From a virus, in IMG/VR virus record IMGVR_UViG_3300003937_000247: DNA of 64,000 nt; one strand, written 5' to 3'. The notes under the pieces were generated by a model. The model ran no database searches and was not told where the DNA came from. It worked only from the letters and a program-made list of their open reading frames with translations. A program made the translations under genes and the position numbers. Shown piece by piece: positions 7,958 through 18,994 of this stretch; positions within the stretch are counted from its first letter, which is position 1, and each line of letters opens with the position of its first letter.

Positions 7958-8221
7958 ATGAAATACAATGAAGACAAAATCTTAAAAGAGATTGGTGACT
8001 ATATTAAGTCAACTTACGGCCAACATTATTCAGAAGATAAGAGAGGCTTTCAAGTTTTAGATTTATTAAGAACACTCAACATTGGAAAAGATTTTTGCCA
8101 CGCCAACGCAATTAAATATTTGTGTAGGTATGGGAAGAAAAACGGACATAATCGTGCTGACTTATTGAAGGCAGTACACTATGTTATACTATTATTAAAT
8201 TATGATAAGGAGATGAAATGA
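7958..8221 (+). CDS. DUF3310-like phage protein
   Basis: HY...F...NAIKYLCRYGKKNG...DLLKAVHY; promoter ttgaca(7923)-17-tacaat upstream. Confidence 0.75.
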   Translation: MKYNEDKILKEIGDYIKSTYGQHYSEDKRGFQVLDLLRTLNIGKDFCHANAIKYLCRYGKKNGHNRADLLKAVHYVILLLNYDKEMK

Positions 8222-8883
8222 AAATAAGTGATAATACAATAGGCATTTTGAGAAATTTCTCGGACATAAATGCCAACATACTATTTAAACCTGGGAAAAC
8301 ATTAACTACTGTTTCAACTATGAAAAACATTATGGCTGAGGCCATTGTTGATAATGATTTTGAGCAAGAGTTTGGTGTATATGATTTACCAGAGTTTTTA
8401 AGAGCATTAGATTCTTTTGCACAACCTGTGCTGAATTTTAATGGAACTACAAATCTAAAAATAGAGGATGAGAAATCTAGTCTATCAGCTAGATATGCGT
8501 TTGCTGATAAATCTACATTGAGATATCCTTCCAAATCAATAACAATGCCAGACAAAACAGTTTCGTTTACATTAAAGAACGAGGACTTTGAAAAGGTTAA
8601 AAAATTATATACTAATTTAAGTTTACCTGATGTTGCATTTAAAGGTGAGAATGGTAAGATTAAACTAGTTGCTTTAGATAAAAAGAATAGTAACTCAAAC
8701 GAATCATCTATTGAAGTGGGTAATACCAACATAGAGTTTACTGCATATATTAAGGCTGAGAATATGAAAATTGTTCCTGGCGATTATGATGTGGCTTTAT
8801 CAAAGGCAAAGATTGCTCATTTTATCAATAAGAAAGTTAAAGTACAATACTGGATAGCATTAGAAGCTGACTCAACATTTTAA
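8218..8883 (+). CDS. gp45: sliding clamp
   Basis: T4 gp45-like (ILRNFSDIN, FGVYDLPEFL, YWIALE); synteny with gp44/gp62. Confidence 0.93.
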   Translation: MKISDNTIGILRNFSDINANILFKPGKTLTTVSTMKNIMAEAIVDNDFEQEFGVYDLPEFLRALDSFAQPVLNFNGTTNLKIEDEKSSLSARYAFADKSTLRYPSKSITMPDKTVSFTLKNEDFEKVKKLYTNLSLPDVAFKGENGKIKLVALDKKNSNSNESSIEVGNTNIEFTAYIKAENMKIVPGDYDVALSKAKIAHFINKKVKVQYWIALEADSTF

Positions 8884-11247: not shown

Positions 11248-11276
11248 TTGACTTTTTAGTTTTTTTTTGATATAAT
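11248..11276 (+). promoter_or_regulatory. sigma70-type promoter for gp43
   Basis: ttgact-17bp-tataat; ATG only 5 nt beyond the -10, so possibly a leaderless mRNA. Confidence 0.75.
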
Positions 11277-11281
11277 ATATT

Positions 11282-13783
11282 ATGAATTTGGCAAGCACTT
11301 TTTATACAAACGTAATTGAAAACAAGGGTAAGCTCCTTGTTAGAGGAGTCGCTGACGGCAAATCATATTTAAGTCGTATCAATTTTAGTCCTAAACTATA
11401 CCTACCTACAAAAAATAAAACAAATCACAAAACACTAGACGGCATATATCTCAAAGAAAAACAATTTGATACTATATCAAAGGCAAAACATTTCTATAGT
11501 GAGTATAGTACTATACCTGGGTACAAAATCTATGGTATGAATAGATACAACTATCAGTACATAGCAGACACATATAGAGATGATATGCAATGGAAGAAAG
11601 ATTATATTAAGATATTCACACTTGATATAGAAACCGAGTGTGAGAGCGGCTTTCCAGATCCTGATACTGCAAAAGAGAACATTATCTGTATTACAGTAAA
11701 AAATCATAGTAATAAACAGATATTAACGTGGGGGTCTGGCGATTTTATTTCTAAAAAATCTAACGTGACATATGTAAAATGTCAAAATGAAAAACATCTA
11801 TTAATGGAGTTTCTAAAATTCTGGTGTAAAAATCATCCTGATATTGTTACTGGTTGGAACGTTAAATTTTTTGACATACCTTATCTAATGAATCGTATGA
11901 GATTTATATTTGATAACGATACGATCAATAAATTTTCACCATGGAATTATGTTAACGCAGACCGAGTACAACTCGGACAAAAAAATCAACAGTATTGGAA
12001 CATACTTGGTGTTTCCATATTAGATTATTTTGATTTATATAAAAAGTTTACATATACTAGACAAGAGTCTTACAGATTAAATTATATTGCTAAAGTAGAA
12101 TTAGGCGAATCTAAATTAGATAATCCATATGAAACATTTAAAGACTTCTATACAAAAGACTATCAAAGGTTTGTAGAATACAATATACAAGACGTTGAAC
12201 TTGTTGATAGGTTAGAAGACAAGATGAAATTGATTGAGTTATGCTTGACTATGGCATACGATTACAAAGTAAATTATAATGATGTGTATTCACAAGTTAG
12301 ATGTTGGGATACTTTAATCTATAATCATTTACTTAAAAAGAATATTATAATCCCACCAAGAGAAGACCAACAAAAAGATTCACAATACGAAGGTGCATAT
12401 GTAAAAGATCCACAATTAGGTTTACACAATTGGATTGTTTCATTTGACCTCAACTCACTTTATCCACATTTGATTATGCAATACAATATAAGTCCTGAAA
12501 AGTTTATAGGAGTTGAAACAAAATCAATTGGTGTAGAAAATTTTTTAAATGAAAAGTTAGATTTGAATTGGGCTCAGTCCAAGGATGTGACCATCGCACC
12601 AAATGGTGCTATGTTTAAAAGAGATAAGCAAGGCTTTCTTCCAGAGTTAATGGAGAAGATGTATGGTGATAGAGTTATATTTAAAAAGAAAGCAATAGAA
12701 GCTAAAAAAGAATTCCAAAAAACAAAAGACCCAATTTATAAAAATGAAATTTCAAGGTGTCATAATATTCAAATGGCAAAAAAGATTGCATTAAATAGTG
12801 CTTATGGTGCTATCGGCAATCAATACTTTAGATATTTTGATGTTAAACAAGCAGAAGCAATTACACTTGGTGGCCAATTATCTATTCGTTGGGTTGAAAA
12901 AGATGTCAATAAGTTTATGAATAAGATTTTAAATACAAACAATGTAAATTATGTTGTAGCATCCGACACAGATTCTATCTATCTTAAATTAGATACACTT
13001 GTTGAAAAGGTTTGTAAAGATAAAACACCAAAACAAATTACAGACTTTATTGATAAAGCTGCTGAAGACAAAATACAAAAGGTAATTGATAAAAGTTTTG
13101 ATAGACTTGCTAAGTATGTAAATGCTTATGGACAAAAAATGATTATGAAAAGAGAATTAATTGCTAATAAAGGTATATGGGTTGCCAAAAAAAGATATAT
13201 GATGAACGTATTTGATGAAGAAGGTGTCCGATATGAAATACCTAAACTAAAAATTATGGGTGTTGAAGCTGTCAAATCATCTACACCTGAAGTTTGTAGA
13301 GGAAAAATTAAGGATGCTATACGTGTAATAATGAATGAAAGTGAAGAAGTCCTAATTAAATTTGTAAATGATTTTAAAGAAGTGTTTAAAACATTATCGC
13401 CTGAAGAGGTTGCATTTCCTAGGTCTTGTAATAATCTAAACAAGTATAGTGATTCATCACAGATTTATAAAAAAGGATCCCCTATACACGTTAAAGGTTC
13501 ATTGATTTACAATCATAACATTTATAAAAATAAACTACAAAGAAAATATCCACTTATTAAAGATGGTGATAAAATTAAATTCCTAATGTTAAAACAACCT
13601 AATACAGTTAAAGATACTGTCATTGCTTTTTCTACAAGGATACCAGAGGAATTTGATTTACACAAATATGTTGATTACGATACACAATTTGAAAAAACAT
13701 TTACTGATCCATTAAGATTTATTTTAAATTCTATTGGTTGGAAACTAGAACGTGAAGCAAGTTTAGAAAGTTTTTTTGAATGA
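11282..13783 (+). CDS. gp43: family B DNA polymerase
   Basis: Exo DIET, SFDLNSLYP, KIALNSAYG, SDTDS, KKRY; C-terminal clamp-binding SLESFFE. Confidence 0.98.
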   Translation: MNLASTFYTNVIENKGKLLVRGVADGKSYLSRINFSPKLYLPTKNKTNHKTLDGIYLKEKQFDTISKAKHFYSEYSTIPGYKIYGMNRYNYQYIADTYRDDMQWKKDYIKIFTLDIETECESGFPDPDTAKENIICITVKNHSNKQILTWGSGDFISKKSNVTYVKCQNEKHLLMEFLKFWCKNHPDIVTGWNVKFFDIPYLMNRMRFIFDNDTINKFSPWNYVNADRVQLGQKNQQYWNILGVSILDYFDLYKKFTYTRQESYRLNYIAKVELGESKLDNPYETFKDFYTKDYQRFVEYNIQDVELVDRLEDKMKLIELCLTMAYDYKVNYNDVYSQVRCWDTLIYNHLLKKNIIIPPREDQQKDSQYEGAYVKDPQLGLHNWIVSFDLNSLYPHLIMQYNISPEKFIGVETKSIGVENFLNEKLDLNWAQSKDVTIAPNGAMFKRDKQGFLPELMEKMYGDRVIFKKKAIEAKKEFQKTKDPIYKNEISRCHNIQMAKKIALNSAYGAIGNQYFRYFDVKQAEAITLGGQLSIRWVEKDVNKFMNKILNTNNVNYVVASDTDSIYLKLDTLVEKVCKDKTPKQITDFIDKAAEDKIQKVIDKSFDRLAKYVNAYGQKMIMKRELIANKGIWVAKKRYMMNVFDEEGVRYEIPKLKIMGVEAVKSSTPEVCRGKIKDAIRVIMNESEEVLIKFVNDFKEVFKTLSPEEVAFPRSCNNLNKYSDSSQIYKKGSPIHVKGSLIYNHNIYKNKLQRKYPLIKDGDKIKFLMLKQPNTVKDTVIAFSTRIPEEFDLHKYVDYDTQFEKTFTDPLRFILNSIGWKLEREASLESFFE

Positions 13784-14559
13784 TAAAAGAGATTACAAAA
13801 TATGTTGCAACGGAATTTATTATGTCAAGGCATTACTCACCAGTTATGCCTAAACTTACTAAACATTATTGTGGTTATTATGTAGATGATATACTACAAG
13901 GCGTTGTAACTTTTGGTTGGGGAACAAGACCTAAACATACAATACAAAAATTGTTTCCAACATTAGATACAAGAGATTATTATGAAATAGGTAAGATGTG
14001 TATGGACGATAGTATGGGTAAAAATTCTGAAACACAAATGTTATCAAAAGTATTAACTTGGTTAAAACAAAATACTACAATTAAATTTTTATTTACTTGG
14101 GCAGATGGCCTAGTAGGTAAACCAGGTTATGTATATCAAGCATTTAATTTTTTATATGGTGGGTACATATGGACAGATACATATGTTACAGACAAGGGTG
14201 AGAAGGTACATCCTAGAACTATACAAAGTAAATTACCTAACATACATAATTACAAATATGGCAGTAGACCTAATCCAACACAATTAGAACAATTAAAATT
14301 AAGTAGAGTAAAAGGTAAACAGTTTAGATATATTTTACCTATGAATAAAAAAATGAGAAAATTTTTAAAACAAAGTACAGTAGATTGGAATTTAAATTAT
14401 CCTAAAGATAAAGATTTAATATGGAAGATTAAAAGACCTGGTGAATTATCATATACTTTAACAGATATAATGCCATTTAAATTAACAAAAGAAGTATATT
14501 ATAACAAAGACAATGTTGAAAGAAATAAAGGTGCAACGTTAGAAAGTTTTTTTGAATGA
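13763..14559 (+). repeat. 21-bp direct repeat bracketing the Mom-like gene
   Basis: ttagaaagtttttttgaatga at 13763-13783 and 14539-14559. Confidence 0.9.
13780..14559 (+). CDS. Mom-like (GNAT-fold) DNA modification protein
   Basis: RHYS, GVVTFG, YEIGKM, KNSET, TWAD...G.PGYVYQAFNFLYGG pattern of phage Mu Mom-like proteins. Confidence 0.75.
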   Translation: MIKEITKYVATEFIMSRHYSPVMPKLTKHYCGYYVDDILQGVVTFGWGTRPKHTIQKLFPTLDTRDYYEIGKMCMDDSMGKNSETQMLSKVLTWLKQNTTIKFLFTWADGLVGKPGYVYQAFNFLYGGYIWTDTYVTDKGEKVHPRTIQSKLPNIHNYKYGSRPNPTQLEQLKLSRVKGKQFRYILPMNKKMRKFLKQSTVDWNLNYPKDKDLIWKIKRPGELSYTLTDIMPFKLTKEVYYNKDNVERNKGATLESFFE

Positions 14560-15026
14560 AAAAATTTAAAGATAGTTTAGAAGATTTTTTTAAATGGGTA
14601 AAAGGAACCGAGTTAGTTGAGCTTGATGACATAGATGTAGCTGAGGATCCTATTAGACCTCAATTAACTTTAGGTTTTAGAATTACACACGGTAGAAAAA
14701 TATTTGGATTAAAATATAATGATGAAATTGAATCAATTGCTTGTATCGCATTTTGTCCTGAAGTACCTAATACAGTTAGAGAAATGGATTATATGTCCAG
14801 AGTAAAAGGTGGTAAGATTGCCATTGCATATACAGTATGGTCAAGGAAAAGAGGTGCAGGTAAAGAGATTATAAACAAGATAAGAGAGTGGATAATAGAA
14901 AAACAATATAAAAGATTGGTAACTTTATCACCATTAACACCTATGGCAACTCACTTTCATATTAGAAATGGTGCAAAACAGATACACATTAATGAGGAGA
15001 CACAAAATTTTGAATACAAGTTATGA
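14556..15026 (+). CDS. GNAT-like hypothetical protein
   Basis: YTVWSRKRGAGKEII resembles the acetyl-CoA binding loop; TLSP...A..FH..NGA. Confidence 0.55.
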   Translation: MKKFKDSLEDFFKWVKGTELVELDDIDVAEDPIRPQLTLGFRITHGRKIFGLKYNDEIESIACIAFCPEVPNTVREMDYMSRVKGGKIAIAYTVWSRKRGAGKEIINKIREWIIEKQYKRLVTLSPLTPMATHFHIRNGAKQIHINEETQNFEYKL

Positions 15027-15138
15027 AAGAATTAATTATATGGTTGATTGTGATACATTGGGGTTATGCAACAGGATCATATTTGGCTTGGAGAACTGAT
15101 TGGAGTATTGAAAAATTTTCAATTATTATATTATTGAT

Positions 15139-15690
15139 ATGGATATTAACAAAAAATATGGGGTGATATATGCGGACCCGCCATGGCATTTCCAAAATTG
15201 GAACAATGCTAACGCACAAACTAATCCAGAAAATCATTACCCTACAATGACAATGAAAGACATTGAAAATTTACCAGTAGGAAATATTGCTGATAAAGAT
15301 TGTGTATTGTTTATGTGGTGTACAGACCCATTATTACACAAACAAATACCTATAGTTGAGAAGTGGGGTTTTGAATACAAGACAGTAGGATTTACCTGGG
15401 TGAAAACTAATAAAGATAAAATGAAAAATTATTATTTTAAAGGTCCAGGTTATTGGACTAGGGCAAATGCTGAAATTTGTATTTTGGCAACAAAAGGTAA
15501 ACCAAAAAGATTAAGTGGTAATGTAGATAGATTAGTTGTAAGTGAACGGAGAGAACATAGTAGAAAGCCAGATAGAATCAGATCAGATATTGTAAAGTTG
15601 TGTGGTGATGTACCACGTATTGAATTATTTGCTAGACAAGAATGGGATGGTTGGGATTGTTGGGGAAATGAGGTAAATAAATGGAATTGA
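15139..15690 (+). CDS. MT-A70 family adenine methyltransferase
   Basis: YADPPW, LFMW, WGFEYKT, HSRKP, IELFAR, WGNE. Confidence 0.92.
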   Translation: MDINKKYGVIYADPPWHFQNWNNANAQTNPENHYPTMTMKDIENLPVGNIADKDCVLFMWCTDPLLHKQIPIVEKWGFEYKTVGFTWVKTNKDKMKNYYFKGPGYWTRANAEICILATKGKPKRLSGNVDRLVVSERREHSRKPDRIRSDIVKLCGDVPRIELFARQEWDGWDCWGNEVNKWN

Positions 15691-15715
15691 CTTTAGCGAT
15701 AACATATGTTATAAT
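15687..15715 (+). promoter_or_regulatory. sigma70-type promoter
   Basis: ttgact-17bp-tataat. Confidence 0.65.
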
Positions 15716-15753
15716 AATATATGGTTTTATATATTGGTTATTAAGAAAGTGGA

Positions 15754-17058
15754 ATGATGAAGTACCTAAATGATTATGCAGATGTAAATAAATTACCCAT
15801 AATGGATCAACAAACGTTTGAAACTATTACAAACGATATTGGTAAAGAACAATTTAGATTAGATTTAGCACAATACATTGCAGACAATAGACCAAAGTTT
15901 CCTTTAAAGGAGATTTCGTTTGAAGCAATGCGTCAAGCATTTAAAAGTTTACAGAAACAAGACGTATGGGAATATGTAAAACCCATAGAACAAATACATA
16001 AAAATGTAAAAGAAAAATATGACGATTACAAATACACTTTTAAAAAACACGGTCTTGGTATTATAGACGCACCATCTTTATACAATGACGTATCAAATTA
16101 TTTTCATCAACATTTAAGATTAAACTGTTCAAGTTATAGTTTTAAATCACCATTAGATGTATGGTATAATGGTACAGCGAAAGATATATGGAGATGTTTA
16201 GGTCCTATGTGGCGTGGTATTAATGGAATGAAACCAGTTACAGTTGGAGATAAAACAGAATTAAGAGGTGGCAGATTAGATGATAAGAGTTATGTATCTG
16301 CTTTTAGATTACAGACATATATTGCAACACAATTTAAACCTAATGTTGCGAAGACAATATATCAAATGACAAATGCTAAAAGAGTATTAGATACATCTTG
16401 TGGTTGGGGTGATAGACTTGCAGGTTTTTTTGCTAGTGACGCTGAAGAATATATAGGTTGTGATCCTAATCCAAATACTTACAAACAATATTTAAAACAA
16501 ATAGAAACATATAACAGTTTTCTAACTAGACCTAAAAAGGTAACAATATATAATTGTGGCGCTGAAGATTTACCTTGGAATGAAATTGATAATATAGATT
16601 GTGCCTTTACAAGTCCACCTTATTTTTCTACTGAAAGATATAATGAGGGTGGTGAAAAAGAAGAAAATCAATCTTGGAAAAAATTTGATGAATATTTTAA
16701 ATGGCGTGATGATTTTTATTTACCTGTATCACAGAAAAGTTTTGAGAGATCAAAACATACATTTATTAATATAATGGACCCTACAATAAAAGGTAAAAGA
16801 TATTATAGTTGTGATGAATTAGTTGGTAGTTTAAAGGATAACTTTGTAGGTCAAATAGGAATGAGAATTATGCAAAGACCTAAATCAGATAAGTTATTTG
16901 AAAATGAAGAAGAAAAAAAAGAGTTTATGAATCGTACTTACATTGAAAATATATGGTGTTTTTCAAAACCAGAAAAACAAAATCCTAATCATTTTCAATC
17001 CAATTTTCAGGAAAAATTAGATTACTTTAGGCACAGCAGAAGGGCAACGTTATTTTAA
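15754..17058 (+). CDS. DNA amino-methyltransferase (SPPY type)
   Basis: TQFKP, LDTSCGWGDR, GCDPN, FTSPPYF; same family as 1145..2230. Confidence 0.85.
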   Translation: MMKYLNDYADVNKLPIMDQQTFETITNDIGKEQFRLDLAQYIADNRPKFPLKEISFEAMRQAFKSLQKQDVWEYVKPIEQIHKNVKEKYDDYKYTFKKHGLGIIDAPSLYNDVSNYFHQHLRLNCSSYSFKSPLDVWYNGTAKDIWRCLGPMWRGINGMKPVTVGDKTELRGGRLDDKSYVSAFRLQTYIATQFKPNVAKTIYQMTNAKRVLDTSCGWGDRLAGFFASDAEEYIGCDPNPNTYKQYLKQIETYNSFLTRPKKVTIYNCGAEDLPWNEIDNIDCAFTSPPYFSTERYNEGGEKEENQSWKKFDEYFKWRDDFYLPVSQKSFERSKHTFINIMDPTIKGKRYYSCDELVGSLKDNFVGQIGMRIMQRPKSDKLFENEEEKKEFMNRTYIENIWCFSKPEKQNPNHFQSNFQEKLDYFRHSRRATLF

Positions 17059-17684
17059 TGGAAGTTGAATTAATTGATAAAATGGGAAGTGACCTATCAG
17101 TAGTAAATGCTGCTAGAGTTTCTTTCAATAAAAGAAAATTTGCGTGGGAAGAAAAAGATGAGAAGTTAATAAAATATTTAGCAGAACATAATCATTGGTC
17201 CCCATTTGCTCACGCCACATTACAATTCAGAATTAAAGCACCAATATATGTAGCAAGACAATTAGTAAAACATCAAGTTGGTTTAAGTTGGAACGAAGTG
17301 AGTAGAAGATATGTAGATCATAAACCAGAATTTGATATTCCTTTTATGTGGAGAAAGAGACCTGATAAAAATATTAAACAAGGCTCAAGTAAAGAAGAAG
17401 TACCTTATGACATTATGAAGTTAATAAAGGTTGCTACAGAAACTTATAATGATATGTTAGAGGAAGATATAGCACCTGAAATGGCACGTATGATATTGCC
17501 TCAAAATTTATTAACAGAATGGATATGGTCAGGCACTTTATATGCTTTTGCTAGAGTATGTAATTTAAGAGACCACGATAATGCTCAAGTAGAAACAAGA
17601 GAAGTTGCAATGGAGATTTCAGGAAATATTAAAGACCATTTCCCTATAAGTTGGAAGTATTTAACCGATGATAGAAATAGTTGA
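17058..17684 (+). CDS. thyX: FAD-dependent thymidylate synthase
   Basis: VNAARVS, HWSPF, RQLVKHQ, NEVSRRY, EMARMILP, AQVETR. Confidence 0.96.
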   Translation: MEVELIDKMGSDLSVVNAARVSFNKRKFAWEEKDEKLIKYLAEHNHWSPFAHATLQFRIKAPIYVARQLVKHQVGLSWNEVSRRYVDHKPEFDIPFMWRKRPDKNIKQGSSKEEVPYDIMKLIKVATETYNDMLEEDIAPEMARMILPQNLLTEWIWSGTLYAFARVCNLRDHDNAQVETREVAMEISGNIKDHFPISWKYLTDDRNS

Positions 17685-18268
17685 TTTAAATATTACAAAT
17701 CTATGTAACGCTAGATGTCCACAATGTCAAAGAACAGCACGGATAGGATTAGAAGTTTGTAGAGAATTACCATTAACAACGTGGTCATTAGAAGACTTTA
17801 AAAATAAATTTCCTGTTAATGGCAAAAGACATAGAAAAAATATGTCATTATATTATTAACAATTCAAAAGCAAAAATTATTATAACAACCAATGGTAGTA
17901 TTCGTACAGCTGAATTTTATAAAAACCTTGGCGACTATTGTGGCAGAAGATTGTCAATGGTCATAGATGTAGATGGTATTGATGAGCAAATGCACCAGAA
18001 GTATAGAAGAGGAACATCATTGAAAAAATCATTGGCTGCATTGAAAGCATTATCACAAACAAAAGCTATACCATTATCACAAACAGTATTATTTAAACAT
18101 AATGAAGAACATAAAAATGCTATAAAAAAATTATGCTTAGATAATGGTTCTCACTTCCACTTATCTTATCCATCAGATAGATTCCCTGAAGGTTATGATG
18201 AATGGTGGTTTATAAATGAAGAAGGTCAAAAAGAATCATTAGAGAAGGTTGTAAATGTCCACAATTAG
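17668..18268 (+). pseudogene. radical SAM enzyme, split by apparent deletion/frameshift near 17815
   Basis: CNARCPQC in ORF 17668..17859; the barrel continues (ITTNGS, DVDG, YRRG) in another frame 17819..18268; the intervening GGEP/GDP segment is absent. Confidence 0.6.
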
Positions 18269-18545
18269 TTGTAAATGGCGAGCCAAAAAAAAATGTATGG
18301 TTAATCCAGACGGTCAAGTTTTTCAATGTTGTTATTTAAAGGAAGACTTTCCTGTCAATCATTGGAGAACAGACCAGAAAGATGATCCTGTTATTAAACA
18401 ATATAAATTTGAAGATAACAATTTAAATAATCACAGTTTAAAAAGCATATTGAACAATGAATGGTTTACAAAAATATTGCCTGATAGTTGGAAGAATCCT
18501 GACACAGCGCCGAAAGCTTGTCAGCTAAATTGTAAGGAGGAATAA
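18255..18545 (+). CDS. SPASM/twitch-like Fe-S domain protein
   Basis: C...VNPDGQVFQCC...C.LNC directly after the radical SAM. Confidence 0.65.
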   Translation: MSTISCKWRAKKKCMVNPDGQVFQCCYLKEDFPVNHWRTDQKDDPVIKQYKFEDNNLNNHSLKSILNNEWFTKILPDSWKNPDTAPKACQLNCKEE

Positions 18546-18965: not shown

Positions 18966-18994
18966 TTGACATTATCAGAAAGATATGTTATGAT
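18966..18994 (+). promoter_or_regulatory. sigma70-type promoter for uvsX
   Basis: ttgaca-17bp-tatgat. Confidence 0.65.

Follow-up and report, generated by a model that had tools for sequence, protein, structure and literature searches.

A polymerase-like C-terminal tail on a Mom-family DNA-modifying enzyme of a marine T4-like phage is a likely docking peptide for the sliding clamp

The 64,000-nucleotide stretch of viral DNA analyzed here (IMG/VR record IMGVR_UViG_3300003937_000247; the window) has a G+C content of 32% and is a piece of a marine T4-like myophage whose closest cultured relatives are Pelagibacter phage Mosig and Methylophilales phage Melnitz, both Kyanoviridae. Directly after its DNA polymerase gene, gp43, lies a gene for a Mom-family DNA-modifying enzyme, and the two proteins end in ASLESFFE and ATLESFFE, respectively. 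Sequence conservation and structural modeling make it likely that this Mom-type modifier carries a tail that docks on gp45, the sliding clamp. From the tail sequences, their conservation and independence of genomic context, the empty sites in relatives, and a complex model with its controls, all observed or computed here, we infer the binding itself, its timing at the replication fork and the modification chemistry as follows. The flexible C-terminal stretch of Mom would end in a T4-type clamp peptide, [S/T/N]-L-x-x-F-[F/L], placed at most two residues from the C terminus and of the same kind as the tail of the phage's own gp43. The Leu and Phe of this peptide would enter a hydrophobic pocket on the C-face of a gp45 subunit, and Mom would be tethered to loaded clamps as these slide along newly replicated duplex. 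Tethering would in turn allow fast, processive modification of adenine by an enzyme that is putatively co-transcribed and translationally coupled with gp43. The features concerned are these:

8218-8883, + strand: gp45 sliding clamp, the proposed docking partner (PF09116, gp45-slide_C, E 7e-13; sequence match to the RB69/T4 clamps 1B77/1B8H/1CZD, E 3e-24)
11282-13783, + strand: gp43 family-B DNA polymerase, ending in ASLESFFE (PF00136, PF03104)
13763-13783, + strand: repeat copy 1, comprising the gp43 codons for L-E-S-F-F-E plus stop and overlapping the Mom start codon (ATGA)
13780-14559, + strand: Mom-family (GNAT-fold) DNA-modifying enzyme (PF25680; phrog_1384; Mu Mom 8BV8)
14533-14559, + strand: C-terminal tail of Mom, ATLESFFE and stop codon, proposed to bind gp45 (conservation, modeled gp45 contacts)
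14539-14559, + strand: repeat copy 2, overlapping the start codon of the following GNAT gene (ATGA)

A preliminary description of this DNA had traced the gp43 ending ASLESFFE and the Mom-like ending ATLESFFE to an identical 21-bp repeat, and both coordinates and translations agree. The exact direct repeat, TTAGAAAGTTTTTTTGAATGA, closes gp43 at 13763-13783 and the Mom gene at 14539-14559, and the translations end ...REASLESFFE and ...KGATLESFFE; that of a 434-amino-acid (aa) open reading frame (ORF) further downstream ends ...HSRRATLF. ATGA overlaps are present at both junctions, between gp43 and Mom and between Mom and the ORF for a 156-aa protein. In the + strand ORFs, the motif [STN][LI]xxF[FLMWY] occurs 5 times in 19,675 residues, giving an expectation of about 0.07 C-terminal occurrences against the 2 observed; C-terminal tails in the window exceed chance.

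Conservation of the tails in homologues, raised in the preliminary description as a check, holds for Mom in every genomic context. Among the best 120 of 1,680 Mom homologues (56-100% identity), approximately 114 end in [S/T/N]-L-x-x-F-[F/L/M] plus zero to two residues, in more than 35 spellings (e.g., TLSEFL, NLDEFFA, SLEKFF, NLNKFFK, and TLDTFFT), and most of the sequences that deviate seem to be truncated. In the alignment of Mom (A2), conservation of L254 and F257 is 90% or more, and residues 236-250 are variable. The attributes of a clamp client were found together: a C-terminal peptide resembling that of the polymerase, an epitope conserved over a variable linker, and a gp45 encoded by the same phage. 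A comparison of 80 IMG/VR loci (given L numbers; 944 ORFs of at least 80 aa) placed the motif in 112 ORFs, namely 79 Mom, 21 gp43, 8 of the family of the 434-aa ORF and 4 antisense; all 21 gp43 copies in related loci (21/21) end in it. The Mom gene lies directly after gp43 (the window, L004-6, and L016-18), after gp43 and a small kinase-like gene (L007-9), after the 434-aa gene (L011, L012, L014, and L034), or directly before gp43 (L036, L046, L060-63, and L131), and most loci have no gp43 nearby; the tail is kept in every placement. In Melnitz, a Mom homologue with 62% identity ends in TATLEGFF at a distance of 65 kb from gp43, which itself ends in TTLEDFFG. This excludes a local duplication scar, as well as conservation forced by an overlapping downstream gene, as the reason for the tail. 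Across the whole Melnitz genome, + strand ORFs other than gp43, Mom and a TET/JBP-type enzyme lack the motif (3 carriers observed versus 0.17 expected). Taken on sequence evidence, the Mom tail appears to be a selected peptide and not an insertion scar. The tail as a by-product of an overlapping downstream start codon or ribosome-binding site was also entertained and rejected, as the downstream genes vary between loci.

The tail is absent from the Mom homologues of phages without gp45 in the 3 cases examined (Edwardsiella, Psychrobacter, and Mu): those of the non-T4-like Edwardsiella and Psychrobacter phages (L243, L244) end ...MDVF.HNFQKY, and Mu Mom stops approximately 10 residues past the shared domain. 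The common ending of L243 and L244, ...[FN][ND]MDVF.HNFQKY, is of separate interest, as MDVF loosely recalls bacterial beta-clamp-binding peptides, and it might be a counterpart in phages that use the host clamp. A gp43 tail is closer in sequence to the Mom tail of its own genome than to those of other genomes (35 matches versus 22.6 +/- 3.5; permutation p = 1.5e-4, with kinship ignored), a pattern consistent with co-adaptation to the cognate clamp or with gene conversion between the tails.

By sequence, the window protein belongs to the Mom family: the gene at 13780-14559 scores 161.1 bits against PF25680 (Mom; Pfam cut-off 27.1), falls in phrog_1384, and matches Mu Mom (8BV8) with an E value of 4.8e-13. 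It is laid out as a core of approximately residues 1-199, a structured extension (200-230) and a flexible end. In the single-chain AlphaFold2 (AF2) model, the mean predicted local distance difference test (pLDDT) value is 86, with values of 85 and 77 in the last blocks and then 59 over the last 20 residues, a fall at the Mom end such as one would expect of a tethered peptide. Mu Mom transfers glycine from Gly-tRNA-Gly onto adenine N6 in duplex DNA and acts post-replicatively (PMC13219725), which corrects the premise of the preliminary description that it modifies DNA during replication. In Mu Mom, R111, S124 and R151 are essential, H58, Y59 and Y159 are among the residues whose substitution drastically cuts activity, and the importance of D149 comes from earlier work cited in the Mu Mom paper. 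Mapped by hand from the HMMER alignment onto the published numbering, H58, Y59, D149 and Y159 are kept as H18, Y19, D109 and Y119, and R111, S124 and R151 correspond to K72, T85 and L111.

Structural modeling with gp45, another of the checks proposed beforehand, was run for Mom. The modeled complex comprised the gp45 trimer (alignment A1) and Mom residues 200-259 (alignment A2), and the interface score ipSAE was 0.60-0.61 in three runs, whereas none of 3 controls scored above 0.00. In a calibration that used neither this chain arrangement nor these alignments, 58 of 80 solved complexes and 2 of 110 mismatched pairs reached such a score. Contact agreement between runs was at least 57%, with a partner pLDDT of at least 39. 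The confident Mom contacts, residues 251-255 and 257-259, center on L254 and F257, whose modeled positions are inside the hydrophobic pocket of gp45, and they face residues 32, 35-39, 106-111, 178-182, 197-199 and 212-217 of one subunit. The model supports Mom-gp45 binding. A similar complex has already been solved, as gp45 is homologous to the RB69 clamp crystallized with the polymerase peptide (1B8H), and the pass may reflect likeness to that structure.

Several points weigh against a Mom enzyme tethered to the clamp. Besides the possible influence of 1B8H on the model, the Mom partner is itself folded with low confidence, and neither this chain arrangement nor these alignments were part of the calibration. 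Mu Mom works post-replicatively on double-stranded DNA without any known clamp, so the reaction itself needs no tethering. K72 and L111 differ from residues important in Mu Mom (R111 and R151), and because of these two replacements the chemistry here may differ from that of Mu. The p value for covariation of gp43 and Mom tails takes no account of relatedness. Finally, the sole earlier claim of a T4 modifier acting on gp45, made for alpha-glucosyltransferase, was not reproduced in a 2025 preprint.

The preliminary description had gone further and proposed that a set of modifiers docks on gp45. Downstream of Mom, the genes and motifs that bear on this are as follows:

14556-15026, + strand: 156-aa GNAT-fold protein, lying directly 3' of gp43 in most relatives (AF2, Foldseek)
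14571-14591, + strand: DSLEDFF, residues 6-12 of the GNAT protein, a third, imperfect repeat copy and probably structural, not a clamp peptide
15139-15690, + strand: MT-A70 adenine methyltransferase without a tail (PF05063), ending ...WGNEVNKWN
15754-17058, + strand: 434-aa SPPY methyltransferase-like enzyme (PF01555 below cut-off)
17044-17058, + strand: shortened tail ATLF plus stop of the 434-aa enzyme (full tails at the same position in relatives)

An alternative to a tail that serves Mom is that all modifiers of the island dock together, with DSLEDFF as the docking peptide of the GNAT protein and RATLF as that of the 434-aa enzyme. Both peptides had been noted in the preliminary description, the first near the N terminus of the GNAT-like protein and the second at the end of the SPPY methyltransferase, and the translations agree. 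The 156-aa ORF begins MKKFKDSLEDFFKW, and a third repeat copy, 75-81% identical, at 14571-14602 codes for DSLEDFF. This N terminus fits [STNK][LIV]xDFF in the close clade, and an internal clamp epitope is functional in an engineered gp55-gp33 fusion (PMC2988020). Against its use as a clamp peptide, DSLEDFF falls within a predicted helix (residues 2-17; AF2) directly continued by a core strand. In the close clade, the pattern x-[LIV]-x-D-F-F-K-W-V-K-G-T-E-L-V-E includes an invariant KWVKGTELVE; constraint runs well past the FF, because the conserved pattern continues through it. Some family members have YEFDFF or YNFNFF instead of DSLEDFF, and only 7 of 93 diverged full-length GNAT representatives carry the motif, the remainder beginning near the DDPVRP core. 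The protein is otherwise a confidently predicted GNAT fold (AF2 pLDDT 95.3; Foldseek probability 1.0 and template modeling score of approximately 0.6 to the GNAT domains of malonyl-CoA decarboxylases and to acetyltransferases), with G100 and G102 invariant inside an R-K-R-G-A-G-K stretch. On this evidence, DSLEDFF is probably a structural N-terminal extension and not a clamp peptide; that it also binds the clamp, as proposed earlier, is doubtful.

For the 434-aa enzyme, the PF01555 match of 24.6 bits falls short of the cut-off of 26.7; a D-x-S-C-G-W-G stretch and SPPY were recognized by eye, and sequence searches of NCBIfam and the PDB gave no useful match. Family members in other lineages are fully tailed, ending in ANLDKFFG, GTLDSFFE/S, ATLDNFFA, GNLDEFFG or QTLENFLQ. 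In the nine loci of the window's clade they end in RRATLF, a shortened form whose ATLF lacks the x-x-F-F part of the motif. MT-A70 has a tail in no copy, either in the window or in relatives' loci, where its endings are similar to ...WGNEVNKWN. A third tailed family is found in Melnitz, where a TET/JBP-type dioxygenase (PF12851) encoded after a C5-cytosine methylase carries the motif, and all of its homologues (48-100% identical) end in [N/S]-L-x-x-F-[F/L/I/M]. This pair of C5-cytosine methylase and TET/JBP dioxygenase lies directly 3' of gp43 (Melnitz L002:4010-6194; L166-L236), and in these loci the dioxygenase always has a clamp-type tail and the neighboring methylase has none. The idea of a docking set thus survives for Mom and, in relatives, for the 434-aa and TET/JBP families, but not within the window, where MT-A70 has no tail, the 434-aa enzyme has only ATLF, and the GNAT motif is in a predicted helix. 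Docking of the full set is unlikely. We propose instead that clamp tails on modifiers are a general device of marine T4-like (Kyanoviridae-type) phages, used by Mom, the 434-aa SPPY family and TET/JBP enzymes and not by MT-A70; among the modifiers of the window, Mom alone has an intact tail, that of the 434-aa enzyme being shortened to ATLF.

It is quite unlikely that the Mom tail docks elsewhere, on another replisome protein, RNA polymerase or a protease, or that it serves mainly to regulate, by competing with gp43, gp55 or gp33 for the clamp, and not to tether the enzyme for catalysis. Competition is conceivable, since the clamp has three sites only, T4 late transcription uses gp45, and gp55 of Melnitz keeps the GLEKFY and acidic ending of T4 gp55, which fits the known set of clamp clients. 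Nevertheless, the Mom motif is that of the polymerase tail, which in T4 and RB69 binds gp45; L254 and F257 occupy the pocket of a single gp45 subunit in the model, whose controls scored 0.00; and all carriers of the tail are enzymes that act on DNA.

The repeat also bears on how the Mom gene arrived. In many relatives, gp43 overlaps the GNAT gene directly through ATGA and there is a single tail copy (e.g., L089, with gp43 86% identical); the order gp43-Mom-GNAT is confined to the window's clade. Mom is for these reasons an insertion here, and the Mom/GNAT junction of the window resembles the gp43/GNAT junction of L151. As evidence, the nucleotide repeat is weaker than the peptide: with the same hexapeptide and the codon bias of the window, 18 identical bases have a likelihood of approximately 3%, and the identical 21 bases close gp43 in L116 and L151, whose gp43 is only about 60% identical. 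For the same two reasons, the 21-bp identity was rejected as proof of a recent duplication. That the tail is a functionless recombination scar, left when Mom was inserted at the 3' end of gp43 and the last 21 bp were duplicated, would account for the exact flanking repeat, the single-copy empty sites and the L151-like junction, but it is very improbable, since the peptide is kept far from gp43, upstream of it and 65 kb off in Melnitz, in many codings and spellings, two unrelated enzyme families carry it too, and the DNA identity can come from codon bias and recurs in distant gp43 genes; its context-independent conservation largely refutes a scar.

The preliminary description had further regarded the Mom-like gene as a recombinable cassette. 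Its presence or absence among relatives, with empty sites holding one tail copy, is as this view predicts, with the repeat a possible driver of gain and loss, but a junction expected from precise repeat-mediated deletion (gp43-specific bases, repeat, GNAT start) had 0 exact matches in viral and metagenome contigs, a search of low power because the occupied junction is itself rare, with only 4 and 2 matches, respectively. We tentatively entertain a broader arrangement, a plug-in "toolbelt" of interchangeable hypermodification enzymes whose portable tails would evolve with that of the polymerase and whose tail DNA could serve as a recombination handle at the gp43 slot. The interval from gp43 to uvsX is a hypervariable island of DNA-modification genes. 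In close relatives such as L009 (3246-5438), the slot behind gp43 is occupied by further genes, for a P-loop kinase-like protein, a membrane protein of 50 aa and a tail-less DPPY N6/N4 methylase. L117, an IMG/VR contig, has an inverted partial duplicate of the gp43-GNAT-MT-A70 segment, with gp43 and 156-aa ORF matches on both strands; it may result from chimeric assembly or from a genuine inversion.

Gene order and promoter matches are relevant to the expression of Mom. The region runs gp45 clamp, gp44 and gp62 clamp loader, regA, a 100-aa ORF and gp43, and from gp43 on, the Mom-family gene, the 156-aa ORF, a 47-aa hydrophobic ORF, MT-A70, the 434-aa ORF and ThyX. Upstream of gp43 lies one further feature:

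11248-11276, + strand: sigma-70-like promoter match (11/12, TG-extended), directly 5' of gp43 (consensus match only)

Near-consensus sigma-70-type sites, which are consensus matches only, begin at 11248, 15687 and 18966, each within an intergenic gap. Because there is such a match before gp43 and the consensus scan found no comparable promoter site and no terminator before MT-A70, the sequence points to joint transcription of gp43, Mom, the GNAT gene and MT-A70 as a single unit. The three sites (11248-11276, 15687-15715, and 18966-18994) are near-perfect TTGAC(T/A)-17-TATAAT/TATGAT sequences with an extended -10 TG, all intergenic, and the first stops 5 bases short of the gp43 start codon, so that its mRNA would be almost leaderless. 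Further downstream, at 17668-18545, a radical-SAM-like gene is seemingly split across three overlapping ORFs (17668-17859, including a C-x3-C-x2-C stretch; 17819-18268, a partial match to PF04055; and 18255-18545, Cys-rich); it could be frameshifted, recoded or truly split.

Docking of Mom on gp45 has parallels in known systems. In T4, gp43, gp55 and gp33 bind gp45 via interchangeable hydrophobic-acidic C termini on flexible linkers (PMC2988020). Like these T4/RB69 epitopes (1B8H), the Mom tail is an extreme C-terminal hydrophobic-acidic peptide on a variable linker, with a cognate gp45 and a modeled one-subunit pocket; unlike them, the carriers here are base-modifying enzymes (Mom, SPPY methyltransferase-like, and TET/JBP) rather than a polymerase or transcription factors, and the binding is modeled only. 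Mu Mom (8BV8) shares PF25680, the GNAT fold and the equivalents of H58, Y59, D149 and Y159, whereas the window Mom has approximately 60 extra C-terminal residues with the clamp peptide, K in place of R111, T in place of S124 and L in place of R151. Mu Mom is also a late, tightly regulated gene, and the window Mom is predicted to be co-transcribed with the polymerase. In vitro data that the 2025 preprint failed to reproduce had led to the proposal that T4 alpha-glucosyltransferase binds gp45; like Mom, that enzyme is a DNA modifier of the T4 family with a suggested role on the clamp while DNA is being replicated, but no polymerase-like tail was invoked there, in contrast to the explicit conserved tail here. 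In animals, a PCNA-interacting peptide (PIP) box recruits DNMT1 to PCNA on newly replicated DNA (PMC9690074). DNMT1 is similar in being a DNA modifier brought to new DNA by a short clamp-binding peptide, and differs in that enzyme, clamp and motif are unrelated and the PIP box is N-terminal, making this an analogy only.

Clamp tails are well known on polymerases and T4 late-transcription factors. On phage hypermodification enzymes, none was found described: full-text literature searches of incomplete coverage returned no description of clamp tails on Mom, methyltransferase or TET enzymes of T4-like phages. The variable gene orders around gp43 mark this slot as a hot spot for swapping anti-restriction genes. 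If Mom does dock on gp45 through its tail, phages would have a counterpart to DNMT1 on PCNA, and a simple sequence rule would follow for recognizing uncharacterized DNA-acting enzymes, in which any T4-like phage protein that ends like the polymerase is a candidate. The conserved tail offers a directly testable mechanism for a question of long standing, how phages modify each new genome copy fast enough to evade host nucleases.

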